A DNA stretch of 64,000 bases, from assembly GCA_963763775.1 (NCBI GenBank), contig CAVXPZ010000004.1, positions 320,001-384,000 on the forward strand, given 5' to 3'. The stretch is from an uncultured Chloroflexia bacterium (GTDB lineage: Bacteria; Chloroflexota; Limnocylindria; Limnocylindrales; CSP1-4). Of this stretch, positions 7,835 to 60,476 are shown one piece after another. The notes beneath the pieces are model-generated. The model was given only the letters and a program-made list of their open reading frames with translations, did not search any database and was not told the origin of the DNA. Position 1 is the stretch's first letter. The number at the start of each line of letters is the position of its first letter. Position numbers and translations under genes: made by a program.

Positions 7835-9097
7835 TTGACCTTCGATACGCTCGGCCTGTCGGCCGATCTCCTCCGCACCGTCGCGGAAGAGGGCTATGAG
7901 GCCCCCACCCCGGTCCAGGCCCAGGCCATCCCGTACGTGCTCGAGGGACGAGACGTCCTCGCTGCGGCCCAGACCGGCACCGGCAAGACCGCGGCCTTCG
8001 TCCTCCCCATCCTCGATCGCCTCCGCGGCCAGGCCAACACGAGCTTCTCGCCCGCTCGCCATCCCGTGCGCTCGCTCATCCTCGTCCCGACGCGCGAGCT
8101 CGCGATGCAGGTCGACGAGAGCGTCCGGACGTACGGCCGGACGGTGCCCCTCCGGTCGACCGTCGTCTACGGCGGCATCCCGATGGACCCGCAGATCAAG
8201 GCGCTGCGAGGCGGCATCGAGATCCTGGTGGCCACGCCGGGCCGGCTGCTCGACCTCGTCGGCCAGAAGGTGGCCAACCTCGGCCAGGTGGAGATCCTCG
8301 TCCTCGACGAGGCGGACCGCATGCTCGACATGGGGTTCCTCCCCGACATCCAGAAGATCATCGCGCTGCTGCCGCCCCGCCGGCAGAACCTCATGTTCTC
8401 CGCGACGTTCTCGGACGACATCCGGCGGCTTTCGGGGACGATCCTCCGGGACCCGGTCACGGTCGAGGTCGCGCCGCGCAACACCGCCGCCGAGGCGGTC
8501 GAGCAGCTCGTCTACCCGGTCGACCGCGACCGCAAGGAAGCGCTCCTCGCCCACCTGATCCGGTCCCGCGACATGCACCAGGTGCTCGTCTTCACGCGCA
8601 CGAAGCTCGCCGCGACGCGGCTCGCGAACCGGCTCGACCGCGAGGGCCTCGATGCCGTCGCGATCCACTCGGACCGCTCGCAGCCCGAGCGCACGAAGGC
8701 CCTCGAGGGATTCAAGAACGGCGACATCCGGGTGCTCGTCGCCACGGACGTCGCGGCACGCGGGCTCGACATCGAGGACCTGCCGGCCGTCGTCAACTTC
8801 GAGCTCCCGTGGAACCCGCAGGACTACATCCACCGCATCGGCCGGACGGGACGCGCCGGCGCGACCGGCGAGGCCATCTCGCTCGTCTGCATGGACGAGG
8901 TGGACCTGCTGCGCGGCATCCAGCGGATGCTCAAGCGAGCGATCCCGTGGACCGTCGAGGAGGGCTTCATCCCGGACCGCAATGTCGAGGCGCGGCCGCT
9001 CTCGATGCGGGCGGGGCACGCCCGGACGGGGACGGAGCATCACGCCCACCGTAAGCCGGTCCGGCGGACCGGGCGGGTGGAGAGCGGTCGTCGCTAG
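7835..9097 (+). CDS. DEAD-box ATP-dependent RNA helicase (RhlE-like)
   Basis: Q motif PTPVQ, AQTGTGKT, PTRELA, TPGR, DEAD, SAT, ARGLD, HRIGRTGR. Confidence 0.95.
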   Translation: MTFDTLGLSADLLRTVAEEGYEAPTPVQAQAIPYVLEGRDVLAAAQTGTGKTAAFVLPILDRLRGQANTSFSPARHPVRSLILVPTRELAMQVDESVRTYGRTVPLRSTVVYGGIPMDPQIKALRGGIEILVATPGRLLDLVGQKVANLGQVEILVLDEADRMLDMGFLPDIQKIIALLPPRRQNLMFSATFSDDIRRLSGTILRDPVTVEVAPRNTAAEAVEQLVYPVDRDRKEALLAHLIRSRDMHQVLVFTRTKLAATRLANRLDREGLDAVAIHSDRSQPERTKALEGFKNGDIRVLVATDVAARGLDIEDLPAVVNFELPWNPQDYIHRIGRTGRAGATGEAISLVCMDEVDLLRGIQRMLKRAIPWTVEEGFIPDRNVEARPLSMRAGHARTGTEHHAHRKPVRRTGRVESGRR

Positions 9098-11021: not shown

Positions 11022-12249
11022 ATGACCCCCGACCGTTCCGCCGCCGCCCTGCTTCGTGCCGTCGATCTCATGGCCGATGGGCCGGTGCCCTGGGGGCGTC
11101 CGTTGCCGCCCACGGGCGCCGGCGTCTTCGTCGTGGAGCTCGCGGACCCACGCCCGTCCGCGCCCATCGAGCTGTCGCGGGTCGGCAAGTGGATCGAGCG
11201 CGTGCCGGATCTCCGTCTCGACGGCGAGCGGCCCGCATCGCGTGCGCTCTCCGCGCGGCTCGCCGCGTTCTGGATCCCTTCGGCGCCCGTGCTGTACATC
11301 GGGTCGTCGACGCAGTCGGTCAGCCGGCGCGTCGCGGCCATCCAGGGCACGACCCTCGGGGACCGGCGGCCGTCCGCCGGCGGGCACTGGCTGCAGACCC
11401 TCACGATGCCGCCGAGCGCACGGGTCTGGTGGGCGACCACCGCGGCCGTCGAGGAGTACGAGGACGCGCTGCTCACCGCGTTCGCCTCGGCCCTCGAGGC
11501 CGGCGATGTCGCCTCGCTTCCGGACCGTGACGTGATCCTGCCGTTCGCGACGCTCGCCCGGCCGACCGGCGAGCGCAAGCGGACCGGGCTCAGCGGGTCG
11601 CTGCTGCCCGAAGCCAAGGAACCGCCGCGCCCCCCGACGCGGATCGTCAACGTGCCCGACGGCGATGCCGAGGGCGCGCATGGCGAACCGCCGGCCCCGC
11701 GATCGACGGCGCCCGTCGACGGGGGCACGGAAGCCGGCGGCGACCGCGGTCGCGGCGGGCTCGGTCCCGCCCGGACCGGCGCCGATCGCCCCGGACGCGA
11801 CGCACCTCACGGTCGATGGCGAGGCGCGCCTGCGCGCCGAGCTGGACGGCCTCATCCGCGTCAAGCGGCCCGAGGTGATCGCCCGGATCCGCTCTGCGAA
11901 GGAACTCGGCGACCTGAAGGAGAACGCCGACTACAGCGCCGCGCGCGAGGAGCAGTCGTTCCTGGAGGGCCGCATCCAGGCCATCGAGGCGCGCCTGCGG
12001 ACCGCCAAGGTCGTCGAGGCGCCGGAGGCGGGGGGACGCGTGGGGCTCGGGTCGGTCGTCACGCTCGAGCTCGACGGCGAGGAGGATCGCCTCACGATCG
12101 TCGGGACCGCCGAGTCGGACCCGACGACGGGCCGGATCTCCTCGGCGTCACCGGTGGGGCGAGCCCTGCTGGGTCATGCGTCCGGCGACGAGGTCGTGAT
12201 CGTCACCCCGATGGGCGACCAGCGCTATCGGATCGTGGCGGTCGACTGA
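11022..12249 (+). CDS. greA: Probable fusion: N-terminal GIY-YIG-like domain, linker, and transcription elongation factor GreA (one apparent +1 insertion near 11712)
   Basis: The C-terminal frame has the GreA signature GDLKENADYSAAREEQ...ISSASPVGRALLG. The N-terminal frame has GVFVVE...LYIGSS...SRR...EDAL...LPFATL. No RBS-supported start precedes the GreA domain. Confidence 0.8.
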
Positions 12250-12280: not shown

Positions 12281-12946
12281 TCAGGCCTGCGGCGTATCCA
12301 CCATCTTGTGCTCCACGGCGTACAGGGCCGCCTGGGTGCGGGACGCCAGGCCGAGCTTGCCGAGGATGTTCGAGACGTAGGTCCGGGCGGTCCGCTCCGT
12401 GATGAACAGGGTCGCGCCGATCTCCTTGTTGCTCATCCCCTGCCCGAGCAGCCGGAGCACGTCCTTCTCGCGATCCGTGAGCGGCTCGGCGAGGTCGTCG
12501 TCCGACGACTTGCGAGTCCGCATCCGCTGCGCGAGCAGTCGGGCGACGGCCGGGTCGAGATGGACCTCGCCGGCGTAGGCCGCGCGCACGGCGGCGGCGA
12601 CCTCCTCGGCCTCGGCGTCCTTGAGGACGTACCCGGACGCGCCGGCCTCGAGGGCGGCCGTGACCTTCTCCTCCTCGATGAAGGAGGTCATCGTCACGAT
12701 CTCCGTCTCGGGCCGCTCCGCCTTGATCCGACCGATGGCCGTGATCCCGTCCATGTTCGGCATCAGGAGATCCATCAGGATCACGTCCGGCTCGAGCCGA
12801 CGGGCCATGGCGACGCCTTCGGAGCCGTCGGCGGCCTCGCCGACGACCTCGAGATCGGGCTGGAGGTCCAGGAAGACCCGGAGGCCCGTTCGGACGACGG
12901 AGTGGTCGTCGACGATCAGGACCCGGATGGTGGTCGGCTCGGTCAC
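12281..12946 (-). CDS. NarL/LuxR-family response regulator
   Basis: VLIVDDH, DVILMDLLMP, GYVLKD, LTDREKDVL...SNKEI HTH; GTG start after GGAGG. Confidence 0.95.
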   Translation of the reverse strand: MTEPTTIRVLIVDDHSVVRTGLRVFLDLQPDLEVVGEAADGSEGVAMARRLEPDVILMDLLMPNMDGITAIGRIKAERPETEIVTMTSFIEEEKVTAALEAGASGYVLKDAEAEEVAAAVRAAYAGEVHLDPAVARLLAQRMRTRKSSDDDLAEPLTDREKDVLRLLGQGMSNKEIGATLFITERTARTYVSNILGKLGLASRTQAALYAVEHKMVDTPQA

Positions 12947-13019
12947 GTGTCCTCCGGACGGGTGCGGCGCGCGATTCGGGAGCAGGGACGAGTCTATCAA
13001 AGGAGCACCCTCGATCCGG

Positions 13020-13421
13020 TCATGGGACGGCCTGTCGGCCGGTCGCGATGATGGCCGCGACGAGCTCGCTCGGTCGGAACGTCTTGCGCACGATGCCGTC
13101 CGCCTTGGTCGCGAGGGTCTCGCGGTCGGGGCAGTCCGACTGGCCCAGGACGAGGATCCGCACGTGCGGCGCCGCCGCCCGAAGCCGGTCGATGCAGTCG
13201 AGGCCGTCCTCGGTCGCCGGGAGCCTCGGGTCGATGACGACGACGTCCGGCGACGCCGACGCGACGAGGTCGATGGCGGCGCTGACCTTGCCCGCGCTGC
13301 CGACGACCACGACGTCGTGCCCGATCCCCAGCAGCCCGGTCAGGCTCTCCCGTACCCGGTCGTCCGAATCGACGATCAGGACCCGGAGCGGTGCGGCGGC
13401 CCGGATGACGGGTTCGTCCAT
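13020..13421 (-). CDS. Stand-alone receiver-domain protein
   Basis: LRVLIVDSD...DVVVIDPRLP...GIVRK; no output domain. Confidence 0.85.
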   Translation of the reverse strand: MDEPVIRAAAPLRVLIVDSDDRVRESLTGLLGIGHDVVVVGSAGKVSAAIDLVASASPDVVVIDPRLPATEDGLDCIDRLRAAAPHVRILVLGQSDCPDRETLATKADGIVRKTFRPSELVAAIIATGRQAVP

Positions 13422-13509: not shown

Positions 13510-16500
13510 TCATCGGTCGCGGATGGACGGCGTCGGGGCCGGCCCGCGTCGGGCGCCGGGCTCGGAGCCCGCCCCGAGGGTGGCGTCCGGGACGAGGACC
13601 TCGATCGTGGTGCCCTTGCCCGGCACGCTCTTGCAGGTGAAGGTCGCGCCGATCCGCGCCGCGCGGGCCTCCATGCCCGCGAGCCCGAGATGACCCGCCG
13701 GCACGGACGCCGGGTCGAACCCCCTGCCGTCGTCCTGGACCCGGAGCCGGACGCCCGCGCGCGTCCGGCCGAGCTCGACGCGCACCTGCTGTGCCGTGGC
13801 GTGCTTCACGACGTTGTGCAGCGCCTCCTGCGCGATCCGGTACAGCGCTTCCTCCACGGGCAGCGGCAGGCGCTCCTCGAGATCGCTCTCCACCACGACC
13901 GGCAGCCCGATCCGACCCTGGAGCGCGGCCGTGTGCGTCTTGAGCGCGCGCGACAGGCCGTCCTGCTCGAGGTTGCCGGGGCGCAGCTCGAAGATGAGCG
14001 CGCGCATCTCGGCGAGGGCCTCGCGCTGGAGCTCGCGCAACTGCGTGATCTGCGCCTTCGCGGCGTCGACATCGCGCTCGAGCAGGAGCTCGACGGAGCG
14101 CGAGACGAGCGTCATCGAGAACAGTGCCTGGGTCACCGAGTCGTGCAGTTCCCGGGCAAGGTGGGCGCGCTCCTCGCCGGCCGCCAGCTCGCCGGCCTGG
14201 CGGCGAAGGTCGCGTTCCAGGCGCTCGCGCTCGCCGACGTCCCGCGCCGCTCCGTGGGCGCCGACGAAGCGGTCCTCCTCGACCATGCCGATGCCGTTGA
14301 TCTCGACGAGGACGTCGTGGCCGTCCGCGTGCCGGAACGGCAGACGGGAGCGGTGCACCGACGTCGGGTGCCGGCTCAGCCACTTGAAGCGGACCTCGGC
14401 CTCGCGCCGTGAGCCTTCCGCGAAGACCTCCCAGTACTCGCGGCCGATGAGCACCGAGGACGGCATGCCCAGCATCGACTCGGCGGCCTCGCTCACGAAG
14501 GTGAGGCGGCCGCCGGCGTCGGTGACCCACACGAGGTCCGGCGAGGACGACACGAGGTAGCGGTAGCGCTCCTCGGAGCTGCGCAGCTCGCGCTGGAGCC
14601 GCTCGCGCTCGGAGATGTCGCGGGTCGCGCCGTGGATGCCGGCGAACCGCCCGTCCGCGCCCACGATCCCGATCGAGTGGACCTCGACCGGCGTGCGCCG
14701 GCCCTCGCGGCCCACCAGGACCAGCTCGGCCACCTGCTGGGTCCCGGGATCGGCCATGAGCCGTTCCCAGCGGTCGGCCGCGACCGCCAGGGACGCGGGG
14801 TCGACGATGGTCGAGAAGTGCCGATCCGTCAGCTCGGCCGGGCTGAAGCCGGTCATGCCCTCGATCGCCTCGGAGAGGAACGTGAACTGGCCGTCGGGGT
14901 CGGTCGCGAAGACGACATCGGGGGAGTTCTCGACCAGGAAGCGGTAGCGCTCTTCCGACTCGCGCAGTTCCCGCTCGAGGCGCTCCTGCTCGCTGACGCC
15001 CCGGACCGTGCCCTGGACGCCGGCGAAGACGCCGTCCTCCCAGACCGAGACCGACGAGATCTCGCCCGGGAAGACCGTCCCGTCCCGATGGCGGAGGAGG
15101 TAGCGGAAGCGCCGGATGACGTCGCGTTCCTCGTGCTGCTCCTCGAAGTTCGCGATCGCCTCCTGAAGCGACTCGGGCGCGGTCAGGTCCGCGAAGGTCA
15201 GGTCCGCGGCCTCCGCCGGCGTCCACCCGAAGAGCGCCTCGGCGCCCTCGGCCACGAACAGGAAGCGGCCCTGCGCGTCGCAGCGATAGATGACGTCGGG
15301 CGTGGTCTGCACGAGCTGGCGGAACCGCGTCTCCGACTCGCGCAGCTCCCGCTCCAAGCGGTCCCGCTCGCGCATGTCCCGCACGGAGCCGTTCGCGCCC
15401 GCGAACTGGCCGCGCTCGTCGAGGAGGGCGGTCGCGATGAACTCGGCGGGGACCGCCTCGCCGTCCCGACCGAGGAGGTTGACGCGCCCCCGGAGTTCCT
15501 GGCCGCTCTCGGCGAGGCCCATGGTCCAGTCGAGCTCGGCGACGTCTCGGGAGGTGTCGTGGAGCAGGACCCCGAAGTGCTGGCCGAGCAGGTCCTCGGC
15601 GAGCCGGCCCGTCATCCGCTCGACCGCGTCGGACAGGAACGAGAGCCGGGAGTCGGGACCGATCGACCAGACGAGGTCCGGGGCGTTCTCGACGAGGTAG
15701 CGATAGCGCTCCTCGGACTCCGTGAGGCGCGTCAGCAGCGTCGAGTTCGTGATCGCGATGGCCGCCTGGTCGGCGAGGCCCTGGAGCAGGTCCAGCTCGT
15801 CGGCCTGGAATTCGCGCGGCGTCCGGGACGACACCGCGAGGGTGCCGATGACCTCGCCGCCCGGCGCCCGGAGCGGCGCGGCGGCCATGCCGCGCAAGCC
15901 GAGCTTCTCCGCGACCTCGACGTCCTCCGGCTCCTGCGGGATGCGCGTGTCGCGCAGGTAGTCGGCGGTGGCCACCGGGACGCGCGCCTGCGCGGCGAGG
16001 CCGTTGATGCCACCGCCGAGCGGGAACTCCATCGAGAGCAGCCACCCCTCGGTCTCGCTGTCCGCCCCGCCCTGGAGGACGACCGGGATGAGGTACGTGC
16101 CGTCCTCGGACATCCGCGTGAGATGGGCCGCGTCGGTGCCCAGCAGGCGCTTCGCCTCGTCGACGACGCGCTCGAGGATGGCGTCGGGCTCGCGCAAGGC
16201 GGCGATGCTCGCGGTGATGTCGCGGAGCGACCGCTCGGTGTCGGCGCGGCGCTCGATCGCCAGTCGCGAGCGCTCCAGCTCCTCGATGAGCCGGGCGTTC
16301 GTGATGGCGATGGCGGCCTGGTCGGCGAGGCCGCCGAGGATCGCCTCGTCGATCGCGTCGAAGCGGTAGGCGTCCTTGCTGTACACCTCGATGGCTCCGA
16401 GGGGGCCCTCGTCGCCGATGATCGGCGCGACGATGAGGTCGCCGATGCCCGTGGACGCCGCCATCTCGTCCGACGCCGGGACGTGCTCGAAGTCGCCGGT

Positions 16501-19500
16501 CAGGTAATCGCCTGCGGCGATGACCCGGCGCTCGAGCATCGCCCGTCCGGCGAGGCCCTCGCCCAGGTGGAGCCGTGACGTGGCGACGGCCGCCTGCTGT
16601 TCCGGCGTCAAGCCGGCGTGGTACGCGGTGACCAGGACGCCCTCGACGGTGTCGAATTCGTCGATGACGGCGCCATCGGCCCGGAGCAGCCGGAACGCTT
16701 CGTCGACGATGCGCTGGAGGAGGCCGATCGGCTCCCGGATCGACGTGATCCGCGTCGCGATCTCGCGCAGCGCGTGCTCGGCCACCGCCCGGCGCTCGAG
16801 GTGATCCCGTGACCGGGCGAGCTCGTCCATGAGCCGCGCGTTCCGGATGGCGATCGACGCCTGCGTGGCCAGCGCGGTCAGGACCTCGAGGTCGGCGTCG
16901 TCGTAGGCACCGGACCGCCGCGAGACGACCGAGATGGTCCCGATGGGCCCCGCCTCGGCGGAGAGCGGCGTGGACATCACCGCACGGATCCCCATGGCGC
17001 GGATGAAGGCGTCGATCTCGGGCTGATGGTCGAAGCGCTCGTCCTCGAGGTAGTCGCGCGTCAGGATCGCCTGTTGCTCCGCGAACGCCCGGCCGGCGAC
17101 GGCCTGGCCCGGCTTGAGACCGCCGCTCTGCGCCCAGTCCGGGACGACCGACATCGCCTCGCCGGCGGCATAGGACCAGCGGAGCGCGTCGATCTCCGGG
17201 TCGTACTGGTCGATCCGAGCGCCGTCCGAGTCGAGGAGGCGAGCGGCCTCCTCCACGATCCGCTGGAGCACCTCGGCCGGGTCGAGGATCGCGGACACCC
17301 GGGCGGCGATCTCGCGCAGCGTCCGCTCCGAATCCGCGCGGCGGGCGATCTCGGACCGCGAGCGCTCGAGCTCGTCGATGAGGTTCGCGTTGGCGATGGC
17401 GACGGCCGCCTGGTCCGCGAGGGCCGCGAGCAGGCCCGCATCCGCCTCGTCGAAGGCCGCGACCCGGTCGCCGTAGACCGTGATCGCCCCGATGACGATG
17501 TCGCGGTGGATCAGTGGCGCGGCGATGACCGACCGGATCGCCGCGGCGCGGACGAAGTCGTCGCGGCCGGGCGTGTGGGTGAACCGGTCGTCCGCGAGGT
17601 AGTCGTCGGTCCACTCGACGCGGCGCGTGGTCAGGGCCAGGCCGGACACCCCGGCGTCGGCCTGGAGCTCGACCTCGCTCAGGAGGGGCTTGCTGGCGAC
17701 CGCTCGCTGACCGGCTTCCTGGGCCGTCCAGACCTCGGCCATGGCGGCGTCGCCGACCATGTCGATCATGGCGCCGGTGGCCCCGAGCAACCGGACCGAG
17801 GCGTCGATCACCGACTGGAGGATCTCGTCCTTGTCGCGCATGGCGCTGACCCGGGCGGCGATCTCGCGGAGCGTCCGCTCGGCGTCGGCGGTGTGGGCGA
17901 GGTCCTCCCGGGAGCGCGCCAGCTCGTCGATGAGCCGGGCGTTCGTGATCGCGATCGCCGCCTGGCTCGCGAGCGCCCCGATGAGCGAGGCGTCCGTCTC
18001 GGTGAAGGCGTCGCGGCGCCGGGAGTAGACCTCGATGACCCCGAGCGGCCCGGCGTCGCCGGTGATCGGCGCGGCGATCATCGAGTGGAACCCCGTGCGT
18101 TCGTAGAACTCGGTGGACTCGGGCGACGGCGGGAACTGGTCGACGAGGTCGCCGCCGGCCAGCACGACGCGGTCCTCCGCGACGGCGGTGCCGGTGGCCC
18201 CGACGCCGACCGAGATCCAGAGCTGACGCCGTTCCTCGTCCGTGAAGATCTCGCGGAGCCCGTCGTCGAAGGCCCAGTGCAGGTTCCCGGTCGAGGGGTC
18301 GAGGAGGTCGAGGATCGCCCCGTCGCCGCGGACGAGCCGGACGGCCTGCCCCACGACGTCCTGGAGGATCTCGTCGGGCTCGCGCATGACCGTGATACGG
18401 GCGGCGATCTCGCGCAGCGCCTGCTCCGCCTCCGCGCGCCGGCCGAGGGCGTCGCGGGACCGGTCGAGCTCGTCGATCAGGCGCGTCGTCGTGATGGTGA
18501 TCGCGGCCTGGTCCGCGATGGCGACGAGGAGGGCGGCGTCGGCGTCGGACCACGCGTCGGGCCGGTCCGTGTAGATCGTCACCGCACCGAACGGGCCGGC
18601 CTCGCCGATCAACGGCGCGGCCATGACCGACTGGATCCCGGTGCCAGAGATGTAGGTGTCGGCGCCGAGCCCGTGCGGGAACCGCTGGTCGTGGAGGTAA
18701 TCGCCCGTCCAGGTCGCGCGGCCGTGGACCACGGCCTGGCCGGCCACGCCCTGCTCGAGCGTCTCGTCGGGATCGTCCGGCCACTGCTCGTCGTCGGGGC
18801 GCTGCGCGCCGGAGGCATAGGCCCAGCGCAGCAGGCCGGAGACGGGATCGAGCAGGTCGATCCGCGCGCCGTCGGCCCGGAGGAGGCGTGCCGCCTCGTC
18901 GACCGCGCTCTGCAGGACCGCGGGGAGGTCCGACGCGGCGCTGATGCGGGCGGCGATCTCGCGCAGCGAGCGCTCGACCTCGGCGCGCTTGGCGAGTTCC
19001 ACCCGGGAGTGGTCGAGGGCGTCGATGAGTCGGGCATTCGCCATCGCCGCGGCGGCGTGGTCCGCGAGCGCCCGGACGAGCGCGACCTGCGGCGGGTCGA
19101 AGGCGGCCGGCTTGGCGCTGAACGCCCCGAGCGCGCCGTAGATGGTGCCGCCGTTGATCAGCGGCGCCGCGACCATCGAGCGGATCCCGATGTCCGCCAC
19201 GACGCGATCGGTCCCCTCGGCATGCTCGATCGCCGGGTCGGCCAGGTAGTCGTCGGTCCCGACGACGTTGCGCTCCGCGACCGCCCGGCCGAAGATCCCC
19301 ACCCCCATCGGCAGCACGATCGAGCGGACCCAGGCCCGGCTTCGTGGACTCCGGATCCCCGCGTCGTGCGCGAACCGCAGGTGGCCCGTCTCGGGATCGA
19401 CGAGGTAGACCATCGCGCCGTCCGCCTCGAGCAGCCGGGCGGTCTCCGCGACCGCCGAGACGAGCTGGTCGTGGATGTCGCCGTGCCCGCCGTCGGGGTC

Positions 19501-19608
19501 ACCGGGACCTCGCGGCGAGGCCGCCTTCGGGGAGGTCGTCCGCCGCTTGGGCGCGACCTCGCCGGGCGGCTGCCTGGGCGTTCGCGCGCGCGGGATCTGT
19601 GTGGCCAC
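13510..19608 (-). CDS. Giant cytoplasmic sensor histidine kinase: 7 GAF + 4 PAS + HisKA_3 + HATPase_c
   Basis: Seven GAF units, each ending in an ALA.QAAIAI.NARL-like helix; four SEERYR.LV...PD PAS units; ERAHLARELHDSVTQ; QEALHNVVKHA, DDGRGF, GLAGM. GTG 19608 lies 6 nt below TATCCT (alternative start 19644). Confidence 0.92.
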   Translation of the reverse strand: MATQIPRARTPRQPPGEVAPKRRTTSPKAASPRGPGDPDGGHGDIHDQLVSAVAETARLLEADGAMVYLVDPETGHLRFAHDAGIRSPRSRAWVRSIVLPMGVGIFGRAVAERNVVGTDDYLADPAIEHAEGTDRVVADIGIRSMVAAPLINGGTIYGALGAFSAKPAAFDPPQVALVRALADHAAAAMANARLIDALDHSRVELAKRAEVERSLREIAARISAASDLPAVLQSAVDEAARLLRADGARIDLLDPVSGLLRWAYASGAQRPDDEQWPDDPDETLEQGVAGQAVVHGRATWTGDYLHDQRFPHGLGADTYISGTGIQSVMAAPLIGEAGPFGAVTIYTDRPDAWSDADAALLVAIADQAAITITTTRLIDELDRSRDALGRRAEAEQALREIAARITVMREPDEILQDVVGQAVRLVRGDGAILDLLDPSTGNLHWAFDDGLREIFTDEERRQLWISVGVGATGTAVAEDRVVLAGGDLVDQFPPSPESTEFYERTGFHSMIAAPITGDAGPLGVIEVYSRRRDAFTETDASLIGALASQAAIAITNARLIDELARSREDLAHTADAERTLREIAARVSAMRDKDEILQSVIDASVRLLGATGAMIDMVGDAAMAEVWTAQEAGQRAVASKPLLSEVELQADAGVSGLALTTRRVEWTDDYLADDRFTHTPGRDDFVRAAAIRSVIAAPLIHRDIVIGAITVYGDRVAAFDEADAGLLAALADQAAVAIANANLIDELERSRSEIARRADSERTLREIAARVSAILDPAEVLQRIVEEAARLLDSDGARIDQYDPEIDALRWSYAAGEAMSVVPDWAQSGGLKPGQAVAGRAFAEQQAILTRDYLEDERFDHQPEIDAFIRAMGIRAVMSTPLSAEAGPIGTISVVSRRSGAYDDADLEVLTALATQASIAIRNARLMDELARSRDHLERRAVAEHALREIATRITSIREPIGLLQRIVDEAFRLLRADGAVIDEFDTVEGVLVTAYHAGLTPEQQAAVATSRLHLGEGLAGRAMLERRVIAAGDYLTGDFEHVPASDEMAASTGIGDLIVAPIIGDEGPLGAIEVYSKDAYRFDAIDEAILGGLADQAAIAITNARLIEELERSRLAIERRADTERSLRDITASIAALREPDAILERVVDEAKRLLGTDAAHLTRMSEDGTYLIPVVLQGGADSETEGWLLSMEFPLGGGINGLAAQARVPVATADYLRDTRIPQEPEDVEVAEKLGLRGMAAAPLRAPGGEVIGTLAVSSRTPREFQADELDLLQGLADQAAIAITNSTLLTRLTESEERYRYLVENAPDLVWSIGPDSRLSFLSDAVERMTGRLAEDLLGQHFGVLLHDTSRDVAELDWTMGLAESGQELRGRVNLLGRDGEAVPAEFIATALLDERGQFAGANGSVRDMRERDRLERELRESETRFRQLVQTTPDVIYRCDAQGRFLFVAEGAEALFGWTPAEAADLTFADLTAPESLQEAIANFEEQHEERDVIRRFRYLLRHRDGTVFPGEISSVSVWEDGVFAGVQGTVRGVSEQERLERELRESEERYRFLVENSPDVVFATDPDGQFTFLSEAIEGMTGFSPAELTDRHFSTIVDPASLAVAADRWERLMADPGTQQVAELVLVGREGRRTPVEVHSIGIVGADGRFAGIHGATRDISERERLQRELRSSEERYRYLVSSSPDLVWVTDAGGRLTFVSEAAESMLGMPSSVLIGREYWEVFAEGSRREAEVRFKWLSRHPTSVHRSRLPFRHADGHDVLVEINGIGMVEEDRFVGAHGAARDVGERERLERDLRRQAGELAAGEERAHLARELHDSVTQALFSMTLVSRSVELLLERDVDAAKAQITQLRELQREALAEMRALIFELRPGNLEQDGLSRALKTHTAALQGRIGLPVVVESDLEERLPLPVEEALYRIAQEALHNVVKHATAQQVRVELGRTRAGVRLRVQDDGRGFDPASVPAGHLGLAGMEARAARIGATFTCKSVPGKGTTIEVLVPDATLGAGSEPGARRGPAPTPSIRDR

Positions 19609-19834
19609 GGTCCGAGGATACGACGCCGCCACGAGCGCGGGCATCGCCGTTCGCCGATGCCGTCTACGTCATCCGGCCGAGGCTGACCCCGACGCCCGTC
19701 GGGCGCCCGAGGGGCGCGACCGTCGCCGTCAGATGAGGACGACCGCCCACCGTCCCCGGGGAGCACCGCTTCCACGATGCCGATCACCGGCACCTGCTCG
19801 CCGGACCTTCGAGAGCACAGAGGTCACCAACGAG

Positions 19835-40151: not shown

Positions 40152-40208
40152 CCCACGTGGACCCTCAGGCGGTCATTCGACGCAGGGTGCAGCAGCCGCT
40201 ACCGTCCA

Positions 40209-42184
40209 TCACTCGTCCTCGTCGTCGTCCGGCTTCGAGCCGCCGCTCCGACGACGGGCCAGGCCCACGCCCACGACGACGACCACCACGAGCACCACGA
40301 TCGCGAGCAGGATCGGCGTGTTGTCCGAGCTCGACGAGCCCGAGCCGGTGCCGCCCGAGGCGGCCGGCGTCGGGGCGGCGGACGCGCCGGCCGAGGCCGA
40401 CGCCGACCCCGACCCGGACGGGGCTTCCGCGGATGGCGCCGCGGATGGCACGGCCGTGGCGTCGGTCAGGAGCGTGTAGCCGAGCGTGCCGTAGGTGAAC
40501 AGCGGCGTCCCGTTGGCCGTCGGCTGGTTCTGCCAGCCCGTGAAGACGTCGGTGCGATAGGCGTCGAGGTTCGAGTCGTAGAACAGGATGTCGTACGGCG
40601 CCTGGTCGTAGATCATGTCCTGCATCTGCTTGAGGATCGCCTTGCGCTCGTCGTCCGACGCGGCGTTGAGCTGCTGGTCGTAGAGCTTGTCGAACTCCGG
40701 GTTGCAGTACTGGCTGTCCGACGAGCTGCCGATGGCGTCGCACTTGAAGATCTGGAGCAGGGCGTTCGGGTCGACGTTGCCGCTCCAGCCCCAGAGCTCG
40801 ATGTCGTAGTTGGCGGTGTAGCCGTCGCCGGCCTCGGGCGGCAGCACCTTGTCGCCGAGCGTGGCCGAGTCGAGGACCTGGGTGGTCACCTTGATGCCGA
40901 GCTGCTTGTACCAGTCGACGATGAACGCCGCGGCCTTCGGGTAGGTGTCGTTGGTGTTCGGCATGAACATCCGGAGCGTGATCGGCTTGCCTTCCTTGTC
41001 GAGGCGGTTGCCGTTCGCATCGAGCGGGTAGCCCGGCCGCGTCGAGCTTCTGCTTCGCGAGCTCGATGTCGAAGTGGCCGCGGCGTGGTCGGGTCGTCGT
41101 GCCACTGCGTCAGGACCGGGCGGGACGATCGTCGTACCCGGGGTCGCCGAAGCCGCCGAGGACCTTGTCGACCAGGAGCTGACGGTCGACCGCGTAGCCA
41201 AGCGCGTCACGGAAAGCCGGGTCGAGCAGCGCCTTGGTGGACGGCCCGCCGCCCTTGATCGTCTTGCCCGTCCCGGTGCCGTAGGTGTTGAACGCGAGCT
41301 GCGTCCAGCCGTTGGCCGAGCCGACGACGGTCTGGATGTTCGGCTCGGTCTTGAGCGCCTTGAGCTGCTCGGCGTTGATGTCGTGCGCGTAGTCGATCTC
41401 GCCGGCCTTGAGCGCCTGGACCATCGTGTCCGCGGTCTTGAAGATCTGGATGACGACCTCGTCCGGCGAACGGCTTGGGGCCCCAGTAGTTCGGGTTCCG
41501 CTCGAACCGGACGAACTGGCCGGTCTGCCACTCGACGGCCTGGTACGGGCCGGTGCCGACGAGCGCCTCGCCGTCCTTGAGCGGCGCGTCGAACTTCGCG
41601 TCGCCGATGGTCTTGCTGGTCTCCTTGCCCCAGATGTGCTTGGGGATGATCGGGAGATAGGTCTCGAGGACGCGGTCGGAGGCGTCCTCCGTGTAGGCGA
41701 TCATCGTGGAGTCGTCCGGGCACTCGACCTTCGTGACCTTGGCGTCGTCGAGGCCGGGGTCCAGATAGCCGGCGCCGAGGCTGCCGGCGCCGCCGTCCTT
41801 GATGGCGTCGAGCGCGAGCTGCCACGAGAAGCAGGCGTCGGCCGAGGTGGCCGGCGTGCCGTCGGACCACTTCATCCCGTCGCGGATGTGGAAGGTCCAG
41901 GACTTGCCGTCCGCGGCACGCTCCCACTTGTCGGCGAATCCGGGGATCGGCTCGAGGTCCGGGCCGAAGTCGACGAGCAGGTTGTAGTTGAGCTGGAACG
42001 CCTCGTACCCGACGACGAGCAGCGTCGCGTACGGGTTGAGGGAGTCGAGGTCCTGGGTCGTGCCGACCCGCAGGATGACGGGGTCGGCGGCCGCGGCTGG
42101 TGTGCCGGCGGGGAGCACGAGCGCGGCCGCGATGGCGCCCGCAGCCAGGACTCGCGCCGTTCGGGCGCGAAGGGATGATCGCAT
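40209..42184 (-). CDS. oppA: Peptide ABC transporter substrate-binding protein (SBP_bac_5) with C-terminal TM anchor; five apparent +1 insertions (about 41465, 41140, 41117, 41078, 41034)
   Basis: DSLNP, KWSDGTP, VGTGPY, RNPNYWG, FRDALGYAVDR, YCNPEFDKL read across frames; AGGAGG RBS; terminal ILLAIVVLVVVVVVGVGLARRR. Confidence 0.88.
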
Positions 42185-42305
42185 CAGTCGAGTCTCCTCC
42201 TGAGGGGCCCTCCCGCCCGAGTGCGGCGTACGTTGGCACAGGCTGGCGAGGCGTGCAAGGACGGGCTCACTTGACGGGCCGGGAACCGTCGTGGGCCCTC
42301 GGGGA

Positions 42306-43487
42306 TCAGACCATCCAGGTCGTTGCCGGCGCCGTCTCGAGGAGGATCGGCCGGTCGATCCGGAACTGCCCCAGGTCGCCGGCCGACGGCGAATCGCCGT
42401 CCAGGCTGAGCTCGGCCGCGATCCGTCCGAGCACGGAGGCGTACTTGAACCCGTGCGCGGCCCCGAGGACGACGGTGATGCCCGGCGCCTCCGGCAACCG
42501 GTCCACCACGAAGTCGCGATCCGGCGTCAGCGTGTAGAGGCAGGTCTTCGTCAGGATGTCCGGCCCGACGGCACCCGGGAGGTGGGCCTCCATGAAGGCC
42601 CGGACGCGAGCGTACGCCGGCTCGTCACGATCGAACGTCCGCCCGTCGGGGGTCGTCGGCTGGCCGCCGCAGTCCTGGGCCGCCTTGGGACCGGCCTCGC
42701 CGTACGTGGGGAACCCGTAGAACGACGGCTCGTCCATCCAGATCCAGACCGGGAACCGATCCGGCGCGAACGCGGCAGGGTCCGGCGCCGCGAAGTAGGT
42801 CACCTGCTCCTTCGTGACGGTCAGAGGCAGCTGTCGGCCGAACGGGGCGAGCAGCTCGTTCGTCCATGCGTCGGCCGCCAGGACCACCTTGCCGGCTCGG
42901 TGGACCGTGCCGCCCGCGTGGACTTCGAGCTCGCCGCCGACCTCGCGGATCGCCGTGACCGGGGTCCGGTCGAGCAGCGTCGCGCCGTGCGCCGTCGCGA
43001 GTCGCCGATGCGCGGCATTGCCCTTGTACGGGTCGGCCAGCCCGCCCTGGGCTTGCCACATCGCGGTGACGTCGTCGGTCACGCGCCACTGCGGCCACCG
43101 CCGTCGGACCTCGGCCGCGTCGAGCAGGTCGTACGGAACGCCCTCGGCAGTCAGGCTCTCGGTGTAATCCGCCTTCGGGATCGCCGGGTCGGCCGGCCAC
43201 AGGTCCAGCCCGCCCGTCACGGTCACGATCCGCTCGCCCAATTCCGCCTCGACCGCGGACCAAGTCTCGTAGGCACGCTTCGCCAGACGCACGTAGTCGG
43301 GACGGTGGTACGACAGTCGGATGATCCGGCTGTGGTCCGCGGAGGCGCCGTTCGCGTGTCCGAACTCGAATCGTTCGAGGCCAAGGACGCGCGCGCCAGG
43401 GCGAGTCGAGGCCCAGTAGGCAGCTCCGGACCCGAGCGCCCCGAGCCCGACGACGATGAGATCCCAGTCACGACGGTCGGCGGTCAT
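42306..43487 (-). CDS. solA: N-methyl-L-tryptophan oxidase / monomeric sarcosine oxidase
   Basis: VVGLGALG, SADHSRIIR, CLYTLTPD (covalent FAD Cys), AHGFKY. Confidence 0.88.
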   Translation of the reverse strand: MTADRRDWDLIVVGLGALGSGAAYWASTRPGARVLGLERFEFGHANGASADHSRIIRLSYHRPDYVRLAKRAYETWSAVEAELGERIVTVTGGLDLWPADPAIPKADYTESLTAEGVPYDLLDAAEVRRRWPQWRVTDDVTAMWQAQGGLADPYKGNAAHRRLATAHGATLLDRTPVTAIREVGGELEVHAGGTVHRAGKVVLAADAWTNELLAPFGRQLPLTVTKEQVTYFAAPDPAAFAPDRFPVWIWMDEPSFYGFPTYGEAGPKAAQDCGGQPTTPDGRTFDRDEPAYARVRAFMEAHLPGAVGPDILTKTCLYTLTPDRDFVVDRLPEAPGITVVLGAAHGFKYASVLGRIAAELSLDGDSPSAGDLGQFRIDRPILLETAPATTWMV

Positions 43488-58761: not shown

Positions 58762-59098
58762 CCGCCTATCGTAGCCCGCGCGCCCGCGAACGCCCATCAA
58801 CGCGGGACCCGTCGCCGACCCGCCCGGACGGTGGTGGCGGGTCACGCCTGCGGCTCCCGCGAGAACCCGTTGACCGGGCGCGCCAACGCCTGTTGCCCGG
58901 GTGCGCCACCACGCGGGTCCCCCGACCCGCCGGTACCACCGGCGCCCACCGCTTGGTACCTCTAGCCAACTGCACCTTTCCGAACCCCGCTGGCACGATG
59001 CCCTCCAGTCCCGGATGCCCGGCCCCCCAGGCCGTCCGCCCTAGACCACTCGACCCAAGCACACCGATCGACCAGCCAACCAGCGAGGACCCCGACGC

Positions 59099-60476
59099 AT
59101 GGCAACGACGGACACGCGACCCGGCTTCCGACTTCCGTGGAGCACCAACGGTGCGGACGCGGAAGGGAACGGCGGCGAGCCAGCCGAGGCCGCTCAGGCG
59201 ACCGACGTCGAAGCGACGGCCGCCCCCGTGGCCGACGCCCCGGCGACCGAGAGTGACGCGCCCGCGTCCGAGGCCCAGGCTGAGGCTCCCGTGGCCGAGC
59301 TCACGCCCGAGCCGGTGCAGCCGGATCCCGAGCCCGAGCCGGTCGTGAGCCCCGAACCGGCGCCGGCGCCCGCCGCCAAGGCGGCGCCGAAGAAGCCGAG
59401 CAAGTTCCTCGCCGACCTCACCCGCGCCATGCAGGCGACGGCCGAGACGTCGCGCAACGAGACCATGGAGCGCTTCTCCGCCGAGGCGAAGACCGCTTCC
59501 GAGCGCGTCCACGCGGTCGCCGCCGACGAGGCCACCGAGCTGCGCCGCGTCGCGGACGACGATGTCGCCGGGATCCGGGACTGGTCGAAGGCCGAGATCG
59601 CCCGCATCCGCGAGGAGACCGAGAACCGCATCTCCGGCCGCAAGGGCGACCTGGAGCACGAGCTCGAGATCCATGCCGGCACCGTCGAGGCTCGCCTCGA
59701 GCGCGTGAACGCCCGTGTCGCCGCCTTCGAGGCCCAGGTCGCCGCGTTCTACGAGCGGCTCTTCGCCGAAGAGGACCCGACGCGCTTCGCGGAGCTCGCC
59801 GAGCAGCTGCCCGAGCCGCCCAGCCTCGATGTGGACGAACTCGATGACGAGATCATGATCGGGATGCCCGCGAAGGCGGTCGCTCCCGTCGAGGAGCCGG
59901 CCGCAGAGGTCGAGGCGGACGTCGCCGAGGCCGAGGCGGAGATCGTCGCCGAGCCCGTCGAGGCCACCGCCGAGGTGAGGCGCTGCGGCGCCCGCCGAGG
60001 CCGTCGCCGAGCCCGCACCGGAGACCGGTGTCGACCCGCGCGTCGCGATGCTCGAGCTCACCCCCGATTTCGAGGCCGCAGAGGCCGAGGCGGCCCTGTC
60101 CGCCGAGACCGACGCCGCCGTCGCCGACGAGATCCCGACGATCGCCGACGAGGTGCTCGCCGCTCGACTGGCCGGCCTCGTGCCGGACGAGAACTCGGGC
60201 TCGAATCCGATCCAGACCACCAAGGTCGTCGTGACCGGCCTCGTCAGCGTGGCCAGCATCGCCGGCTTCAAGCGCCACCTCGGACGCCTCCAGGGCGTGA
60301 CCACGGTCGGCGTGTCCTCCGGGCCGGACGGCGAGTTCGTCTTCTCGGTCCACCACCTGCCGACCATGGACCTCGCCGCGGGGATCCAGGGCCTGCCGGG
60401 CTTCGAGAGCCGGATCACCAGCCAGAGCGATGGCGCCATCGAGGTCGCGGCGCGCGACCCTGAGGCTCACGACTGA
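59099..60476 (+). CDS. Acidic coiled-coil hypothetical protein with small C-terminal alpha/beta domain; apparent +1 insertion near 59978
   Basis: N-terminal GFRLPWS, Ala/Pro/Glu-rich linkers, long heptad-like helix; C-terminal VVVTGLVSVASIAGFKRHL domain in a shifted frame. Confidence 0.75.

Follow-up and report, generated by a model that had tools for sequence, protein, structure and literature searches.

Both Gre factors and GIY-YIG nucleases are familiar from textbooks. GreA inserts its coiled coil into the RNA polymerase secondary channel, while its globular domain grips the channel rim; the aspartate and glutamate of the GDLKEN motif are the two acidic coiled-coil tip residues that have a role in E. 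coli GreA. In the homing endonuclease I-TevI, a flexible linker connects a GIY-YIG module at the N-terminus to a targeting module at the C-terminus. The joining of a Gre factor to a GIY-YIG-like domain is newly noticed here, in a 64,000 nucleotide (nt) stretch of DNA from an uncultured Chloroflexia bacterium, referred to as the window (GenBank assembly GCA_963763775.1, contig CAVXPZ010000004.1, positions 320,001–384,000). Positions 11022–12249 of the window probably constitute one gene for a two-module protein of approximately 408 amino acids (aa), a GIY-YIG-like domain followed by GreA, with one extra base that is probably an artefact. The fused architecture is real and conserved, and apparently it has not been described before; the copy in the window is most probably broken by a consensus error. 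A nuclease-fold domain leashed to the secondary channel would bear directly on the handling of stalled polymerases, on R-loops and transcription-coupled repair.

An earlier note on this DNA, made by a model from the letters alone (the sequence-only reading), knew of no characterised protein with this architecture, and the literature search found none. No description of a GIY-YIG domain joined to GreA was found among the papers listed, subscription-only papers being outside the search, and a term search of the text of a 2006 survey of the GIY-YIG superfamily gives no mention of GreA.

The gene is read in two frames. Frame 0 is opened by an ATG at 11022 and, the DNA being GC-rich, runs on out of register without a stop as far as 12380, and every motif quoted for it at the outset is present (GVFVVE, VLYIGSSTQSVSRRV, GGHWLQ, VWW, EEYEDALL and LPFATL). 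Frame +1 displays an open reading frame (ORF) at 11665–12249, the last 150 residues of which are a complete GreA with the stop codon at 12247–12249. In a tblastn comparison with P0003, an intact 410 aa relative with 83% identity, the window is split into two consecutive-frame pieces that correspond to residues 1–228 and 242–410 of the relative. Thus frames 0 and +1 do not overlap by chance but are the two parts of a single gene.

The relatives carry the two modules in one continuous ORF. A search with the N-terminal part gave 1117 proteins at an E-value of 1e-3 or better among 8000 scored candidates. In 113 of the best 120 homologues both GreA Pfam domains are found and the lengths are 393–426 aa; the others are five shorter proteins that have no GreA domains and two that have the GreA N-domain only. 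When P0003 is used as a tblastn query, a single full-length piece is found in all six complete loci from the same genus, and a seventh locus ends at a contig edge. A survey at the species level (the 80 best of 195 species-representative genomes) shows 72 copies in a single frame, 6 split by a +1 shift and 2 cut by contig ends. Two separate genes in the relatives had been named as the outcome that speaks against a fusion; all three counts show one ORF instead. Public annotation lists these proteins plainly as 'transcription elongation factor GreA'. Two further N-domains from the same genus are split between frames or contain an internal TAA (G001:C4:266160-266730 and G004:C141:4599-4970), and G001 also has a canonical-type greA match in two pieces.

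The GreA module is situated at 11797–12249 in frame +1, with the coiled coil at approximately 11806–12012 and the globular domain at approximately 12031–12243. The coiled-coil domain PF03449 gives 85.1 bits (cut-off 24.5) over profile positions 3–71 of 71 and the globular domain PF01272 gives 78 bits against 26.9 (positions 3–75 of 77). The full-length GreA model TIGR01462 gives 155.9 bits against a cut-off of 139, and 156.4 bits in the genome search. The tip sequence GDLKENADY lies at 11908–11934, and its G, D, L, K, E and N are invariant in 38/38 relatives. The module is therefore complete with an intact acidic tip, as was first proposed.

Likeness to canonical GreA/GreB (TIGR01462; PF03449 plus PF01272) comprises the C-terminal 150 aa with scores over the cut-offs, the acidic tip, and a predicted coiled coil plus beta-rich globular domain. 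The fused protein differs by an N-terminal extension of approximately 260 aa, which consists of the domain and the linker. Two NCBIfam models also have GreA at the C-terminal end, NF004969 ('transcript cleavage factor/unknown domain fusion protein', 718 positions) and NF011309 (906 positions). The window GreA matches their C-terminal ends (570–710 and 761–899, respectively) but with scores far below the cut-offs (48.5 versus 697 bits and 86.7 versus 714 bits). The N-domain matches no NCBIfam model, thus the N-terminal modules of these proteins are unrelated.

A structural model of an intact relative shows two modules at a predicted local distance difference test score (pLDDT) of approximately 90, the GreA part with a pair of long helices ahead of a beta domain, with some 70–80 low-confidence residues between the modules (pLDDT 36–47 over residues 210–259). 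The predicted template modelling score (pTM) of this model is 0.49, which indicates no fixed mutual orientation of the modules. The connector has a conserved start, with the motifs RPTGERK.TGL and VPDGDAEGA.GEP, and then a variable basic Ala/Pro-rich stretch. In the window the conserved extension comprises residues 181–226 (11562–11699, frame 0), where RPTGERK.TGL.GSLL precedes the acidic VPDGDAEGA.GEP and the model is of low confidence. In an alignment of 123 sequences G183, R185, A216 and G218 are invariant, and D213, G214 and D215 are conserved at 90% or more. The variable linker is at 11707–11796 in frame +1, with a gapped, unconserved alignment. The near-invariant acidic VPDGDAEGA.GEP (11655–11693, residues 212–223) is thus located in a disordered connector before a basic patch, and it is found only in the GreA-fused form.

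The frame break is at 11700–11709, with one extra base, an A, placed at 11706. Homology to the relatives is carried by frame 0 as far as ..GEPPAPRS and is taken over by frame +1 at RRPST..; the corresponding stretch of relative P0005 is RRPSTRARKP. A 151 nt short-read contig from another data set, run X3, which spans 11665–11816 with 7 mismatches (95% identity), does not have one base at 11706, and the frame is restored. The sequence-only reading had removed a C at about 11712. A single-base insertion is confirmed, but its place is 11706, and deletion of either base restores the frame.

The extra base is quite probably a long-read-type assembly error rather than biology. Among the 80 surveyed loci the broken relatives come from 6/47 assemblies whose contigs are named contig_N, versus 0/33 others (one-sided Fisher p = 0.036), and their +1 breaks are at differing, non-homologous places. 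The genome of the window is assembled in 4 contigs, yet only 87% of marker genes are found. In addition, a gene for an ABC-transporter substrate-binding protein (SBP_bac_5, PF00496) at 40165–42526 on the minus strand displays profile positions 1–146, 147–245 and 240–360 in three different frames. A scan for frame switches by G+C at third codon positions (GC3), combined with Pfam, places the two extra breaks near 41,473 and 41,056. A gene spread over three frames fits an error-prone consensus. Seven other interrupted genes had been claimed for this stretch; two further frame breaks are confirmed, both within the one SBP_bac_5 gene. Single-base insertions that split genes are a practical warning for users of this assembly. 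The break at 11.7 kb itself was not flagged in the GC3 scan of the window. Other GC3 candidates for a stop-less frame change, all unconfirmed, are 59045–60476 (plus strand), approximately 35,139, 36,573 and 22,489; the pieces around 59,988 show no Pfam match.

Several observations weigh against an artefact. The short-read contig is a single record at a depth of 2.9 from another strain, and it fixes the place of the break, not its cause. No reads from the window's own strain were present among the runs seen; no RNA run is listed among them, the share of sampled words found in any one run does not exceed 0.10, and runs X1 and X2 give no cover over large parts of the gene. A real frameshift in this strain is thus to be considered, but appears unlikely. 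The products would be the GIY-YIG-like part with an extended tail read out of frame and, possibly, a GreA of its own started at the ATG at 11680, so that the gene would be a pseudogene or a recent split. The base is present in the assembly, none of the runs seen supplied own-strain reads, and the presence of a canonical greA makes loss tolerable. The earlier claim that the GreA frame has no start supported by a ribosome-binding site is too strong, as there are ATG codons at 11665 and 11680 and a GAGG lies 6 nt before the latter. However, both GAGG and ATG arise from the coding sequence of the conserved motif DAEGA.GEP. The N-domain is kept in 23/23 sampled genomes of the family, 72/80 loci are unbroken and a single assembly type accounts for all six broken ones, other breaks occur in an ordinary transporter gene of the window, and the two parts of the gene retain 83% identity to the intact relative and show no other lesion. 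Given a real break, the ATG at 11680 (GAGG/ATG region 11670–11682) could serve as the start of a GreA extended by approximately 40 aa.

A programmed event in the linker, either a +1 ribosomal frameshift or slippage during transcription, yielding an N-domain-only product together with the full fusion, is very unlikely. The break is in or at the edge of the linker in 5/7 broken copies, the window included, and all are in the same direction. However, the linker is the most GC-rich and repetitive part of the gene, where consensus errors are expected, and the breaks of relatives L057 and L100 are inside folded domains. The breaks occur at different sequences with no common slippery motif, no shift is needed in 72/80 relatives, and at this site the 95% identical contig keeps the frame.

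The N-terminal domain (residues 1–180, 11022–11561, frame 0) matches no Pfam, NCBIfam or PDB sequence, and its assignment depends on structure and profile comparisons. An AlphaFold2 model made with 123 sequences gives a pLDDT of 87.6 and a pTM of 0.81, with the pLDDT falling to 49–61 from residue 190. The modelled order of secondary structure is strand, two helices, strand, helix, helix, strand, helix. A structural scan of 48,161 representative PDB chains gave only 10 at Z of 2 or better, and the seven best are all GIY-YIG proteins: T4 EndoII (Z = 7.7), the UvrC GIY-YIG domain (6.1), a plant Grx N-domain (6.0), I-TevI (5.5), Hpy188I (4.5), Eco29kI (4.3) and PD-T4-3 (4.1). Two of the seven, 2lwf and 9u75, have titles that are silent on this, and we take them to be GIY-YIG proteins. 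By the aligned ranges, G34-V35-F36 coincide with the beginning of I-TevI, and residue 177 falls beside the end of the UvrC domain; residue equivalences given here are based on these ranges and on hhalign, not on superposition.

A profile of 204 family members was compared by hhalign with 20 UvrC GIY-YIG domains from related genomes and gave a probability of 83.6% with E-value = 8.2e-6 over 81 columns. Of the 21 controls, the reversed profile gave E-value = 0.032 and the 20 column shuffles gave 0.043 or higher. The comparison pairs Y92 and G94 with the Tyr and Gly of the UvrC YVG, R103 with the Arg, H122 with a His and E147 with a Glu of the catalytic region. Among 30 protein-atlas neighbours, unnamed actinobacterial clusters of approximately 200 aa come first, and the only Pfam families named in the listed sets are GIY-YIG (PF01541 and PF20815). 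One stand-alone member of the family reaches PF20815 at an E-value of 0.003.

In the gene, strand 1 is GVFVVE with F36 at 11127–11129, followed by a two-helix insertion of about 50 aa. Strand 2 is VLYIG with Y92 at 11295–11297, and the helix after it bears R103 (11328–11330). Strand 3 is VWWAT and the next helix bears E147 (11460–11462). The segment PFATL carries T177 (11550–11552), a position that is Asn in most relatives. The domain had been called GIY-YIG-like at the outset, and the seven top structural matches, the UvrC profile comparison and the atlas neighbours agree on this; a structurally different domain, which had been named as the opposing outcome, was not found. On the basis of the model and the profile comparison, the N-domain is concluded to be a divergent member of the GIY-YIG superfamily with a predicted helical insertion of approximately 50 aa between strands 1 and 2. 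Compared with UvrC (1ycz), T4 EndoII (2wsh) and I-TevI (1ln0), to which the modelled fold appears similar at Z of 6.1, 7.7 and 5.5, the fused clade differs by this insertion, by Phe in place of the first Tyr and by an aliphatic residue at position 107.

A number of results do not favour this assignment. The first 243 residues of frame 0 match no Pfam or NCBIfam family at an E-value of 1 or better, and the N-domain profile finds no PDB sequence at E-value = 10 or better. Foldseek gives no PDB match at 0.001 or better (best E-value = 0.87), and Eco29kI is found only at ranks 21 and 27. According to the search tool, best scores of Z 7–8 are typical of models that lack a clear match. What supports the fold call is therefore the single superfamily of all seven top rows, together with the profile comparison. 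The alignment used for structure prediction was limited to relatives at least 62% identical to the window, and strand 1 is outside the hhalign match. No family member scanned matches PF01541 or PF20815 over the cut-off, the best being a distant member with 18 bits versus 22.4. The family is one of GIY-YIG-like N-domains that is covered by no curated model.

These results could also reflect convergence of a small alpha/beta fold, with the N-domain being an unrelated module, e.g. for protein-protein contact or small-molecule binding, that regulates a Gre paralogue. Such an origin is improbable. The Z values of 7.7 or lower, the blank Foldseek search and the lack of any curated hidden Markov model reaching its cut-off are in its favour, as is the loss of two of six catalytic positions across the clade. 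However, the seven top structural rows belong to one superfamily with almost nothing else scoring, and the profile comparison is far above its 21 controls, with the YIG Tyr and Gly, the Arg and the catalytic Glu in register. Moreover, the full set of Y, Y, R, E and N is found in 41/88 stand-alone or more distant representatives.

Membership in the GIY-YIG superfamily leads to the question of the active site. According to PMC3161791, the accepted catalytic set is Y6, Y17, R27, H31, E74 and N87 of I-BmoI, equivalent to Y49, Y76, R104, H108, E142 and N154 of Eco29kI. The window has F36, Y92, R103, I107, E147 and T177 at these positions. Three of the six retain the classical residue. Position 92, the YIG Tyr, is Tyr in 106/114 close fused relatives and 34/41 stand-alone proteins. 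At position 103, Arg is found in 106/114 close relatives (the other 8 have Lys) and in 39/41 stand-alone proteins. Position 147, the metal-binding Glu, is Glu in 113/114 close relatives, 37/41 stand-alone proteins and 22/22 of a further set, and hhalign pairs it with the second Glu of the UvrC EALLLE.

The other three positions are altered in the window. Position 36, the GIY Tyr, is Phe in 111/114 and Tyr in 2/114 close fused relatives, and Tyr in 29/41 stand-alone proteins. Position 107, four residues after the Arg, where the superfamily has a His or Tyr, is Met (52), Ile (51) or Leu (9) in the 114 close relatives, and Tyr (16) or Phe (8) in the 41 stand-alone proteins. Position 177, the C-terminal Asn, is Thr in the window, with Asn in 102/114 close relatives and 37/41 stand-alone proteins. 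This Asn is not universal, being absent in Slx1 and replaced by Asp in COG1833, according to PMC1564403. The degenerate site noted from the letters is thus seen again: the change of the GIY Tyr to Phe is a rule of the clade, and the change of Asn to Thr puts the window copy in a minority. All of the 135 sequences with Phe36 (135/135) have Glu39 and a non-aromatic residue at 107; these sequences are mutually related, so that this is a description, not a test.

These changes count against a nuclease of the classical type. The full set of Y, Y, R, E and N is present in 2/115 close members versus 41/88 more distant representatives. The position equivalent to His31/His108 is aliphatic, and the window copy does not have the Asn either. 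F36 occupies the position of Eco29kI Y49, and the title of PDB 3nic calls Y49F an inactive variant; classical GIY-YIG chemistry in the fused clade is therefore doubtful. As judged from sequence, the missing catalytic Tyr and His argue against this type of cleavage. The strict retention of the Arg, the Glu and the second Tyr, together with many family-specific polar residues, indicates that the pocket is still under selection.

By analogy with other Gre factors, the fused GreA would dock in the secondary channel of RNA polymerase, and its N-terminus would be outside the channel mouth. A leash of approximately 80 residues could then put nucleic acid near a paused or backtracked complex within range of the GIY-YIG-like module, which may handle downstream or non-template DNA, the RNA:DNA hybrid or extruded RNA. 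In the clade Phe appears to have taken the place of the first Tyr, and Met, Ile or Leu that of the His/Tyr four residues after the Arg, with Tyr92, Arg103, Glu147 and usually Asn177 kept and Glu39 fixed. Such a module may well bind nucleic acid with no cutting or with much reduced cutting. Possibly its site has been remodelled and the nuclease is active, and there is a smaller chance that it does something else, e.g. makes a protein contact. The suggestion of the sequence-only reading that the protein may couple transcription rescue to repair or R-loop processing stays a hypothesis. The I-TevI and I-BmoI homing endonucleases resemble the fusion in design: a long flexible linker leads from a GIY-YIG module at the N-terminus to a C-terminal module for targeting. 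However, their targeting module binds DNA, and that of the fusion would be a Gre-type binder of RNA polymerase. The homing endonucleases are mobile as well, whereas the fusion is a conserved chromosomal gene in fixed synteny.

A bolder proposal, which we regard as speculative and rather doubtful, is a new class of secondary-channel factor in which a Gre paralogue that is universal in one family of soil Chloroflexota brings an active, remodelled GIY-YIG nuclease to paused or backtracked RNA polymerase and cuts DNA or the RNA:DNA hybrid. If true, this would be a one-polypeptide device for transcription-coupled incision or for R-loops and conflicts that operates with no Mfd-UvrABC hand-over, and Phe36, Glu39 and the aliphatic residue 107 would represent a new catalytic variant. 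The gene neighbourhood, compared over 67 loci, shows conserved synteny but no repair or defence partner, and it suggests no pathway.

The fused gene is a second Gre paralogue beside canonical greA. A separate canonical greA, for which a search had been recommended, is present in the window's genome (174.8 bits) and is 49% identical to the fused GreA, giving two greA matches in this genome. Among 12 genomes searched from the same genus 10 have a greA match, of which nine have two or three and one has one; the remaining two have none. In the sister family all 8 genomes have one greA match and none of them (0/8) has the N-domain. UvrC is separate, found once per genome, and is the sole PF01541 match in the genomes examined.

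The N-domain is found in 9/12 genomes of the same genus, and the three that do not have it are 59–69% complete. In a sample of 400 genomes of the phylum it is present in 23/23 genomes of the window's family (11 genera), in 1/16 of another family of the class and in 0/361 of the rest. Retention in all 23 genomes of the family indicates that the fusion gene does something. Public labels of the carriers are Chloroflexota, Limnocylindrales or Limnocylindria metagenome-assembled genomes, and one Saccharimonadales.

A profile search of 1.84 billion cluster representatives gave 968 at an E-value of 1e-3 or better. Thus a GIY-YIG family unmatched by Pfam or NCBIfam models comprises approximately 970 sequence clusters at 50% identity, stand-alone actinobacterial proteins included. 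Of the best 150 representatives, 32 carry GreA and many are stand-alone proteins of approximately 200 aa. The stand-alone homologues, mostly from Actinomycetota, share the same domain (E-values down to 1e-43), and the insertion and a C-terminal K.HGITG-type motif are common to both. They differ in having no GreA, and most have the canonical Tyr36 and a Tyr or Phe at 107; they carry no functional annotation.

Two other types of C-terminal tail are found among the best 150 representatives, in 7 and 6 of them, with one weak HARE-HTH match. The differing tails show that the nuclease-fold module is joined to different partners, as in modular GIY-YIG enzymes. One tail is a domain of approximately 90 aa with G.IR.P...K.L.P and W.PR motifs, and the other is helix-turn-helix-like. 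The carriers are P0231, P0234, P0236, P0244, P0257, P0259 and P0260, and further P0132, P0145, P0182, P0189, P0245 and P0255, as well as P0250.

A stand-alone relative (L112) is situated on plasmid pMYCSM02 of Mycobacterium sp. JS623 at 8007–8621, where it is annotated as hypothetical; it is 37% identical to P0222, another stand-alone homologue. Its surroundings consist of small hypothetical genes, a WhiA-like gene, a DNA methyltransferase, RNase HI and RNA ligase, and give no functional lead. A search of phages with P0222 gave no match.

In the chromosomal neighbourhood of the fusion a DEAD-box helicase is found upstream in 62/67 loci. A gene of the beta-lactamase family is oriented divergently, and three genes run convergently towards the fusion: a LuxR-type response regulator, a receiver and a giant GAF/PAS kinase. 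From this arrangement the fusion gene looks monocistronic. In the window the LuxR-type response regulator is at 12281–13000 and the receiver at 13020–13421. The giant kinase corresponds to a 2044 aa ORF on the minus strand at 13510–19644, which resembles a sensor kinase rich in GAF and PAS domains. It converges on the fusion gene, and its position is kept in 53/67 related loci.

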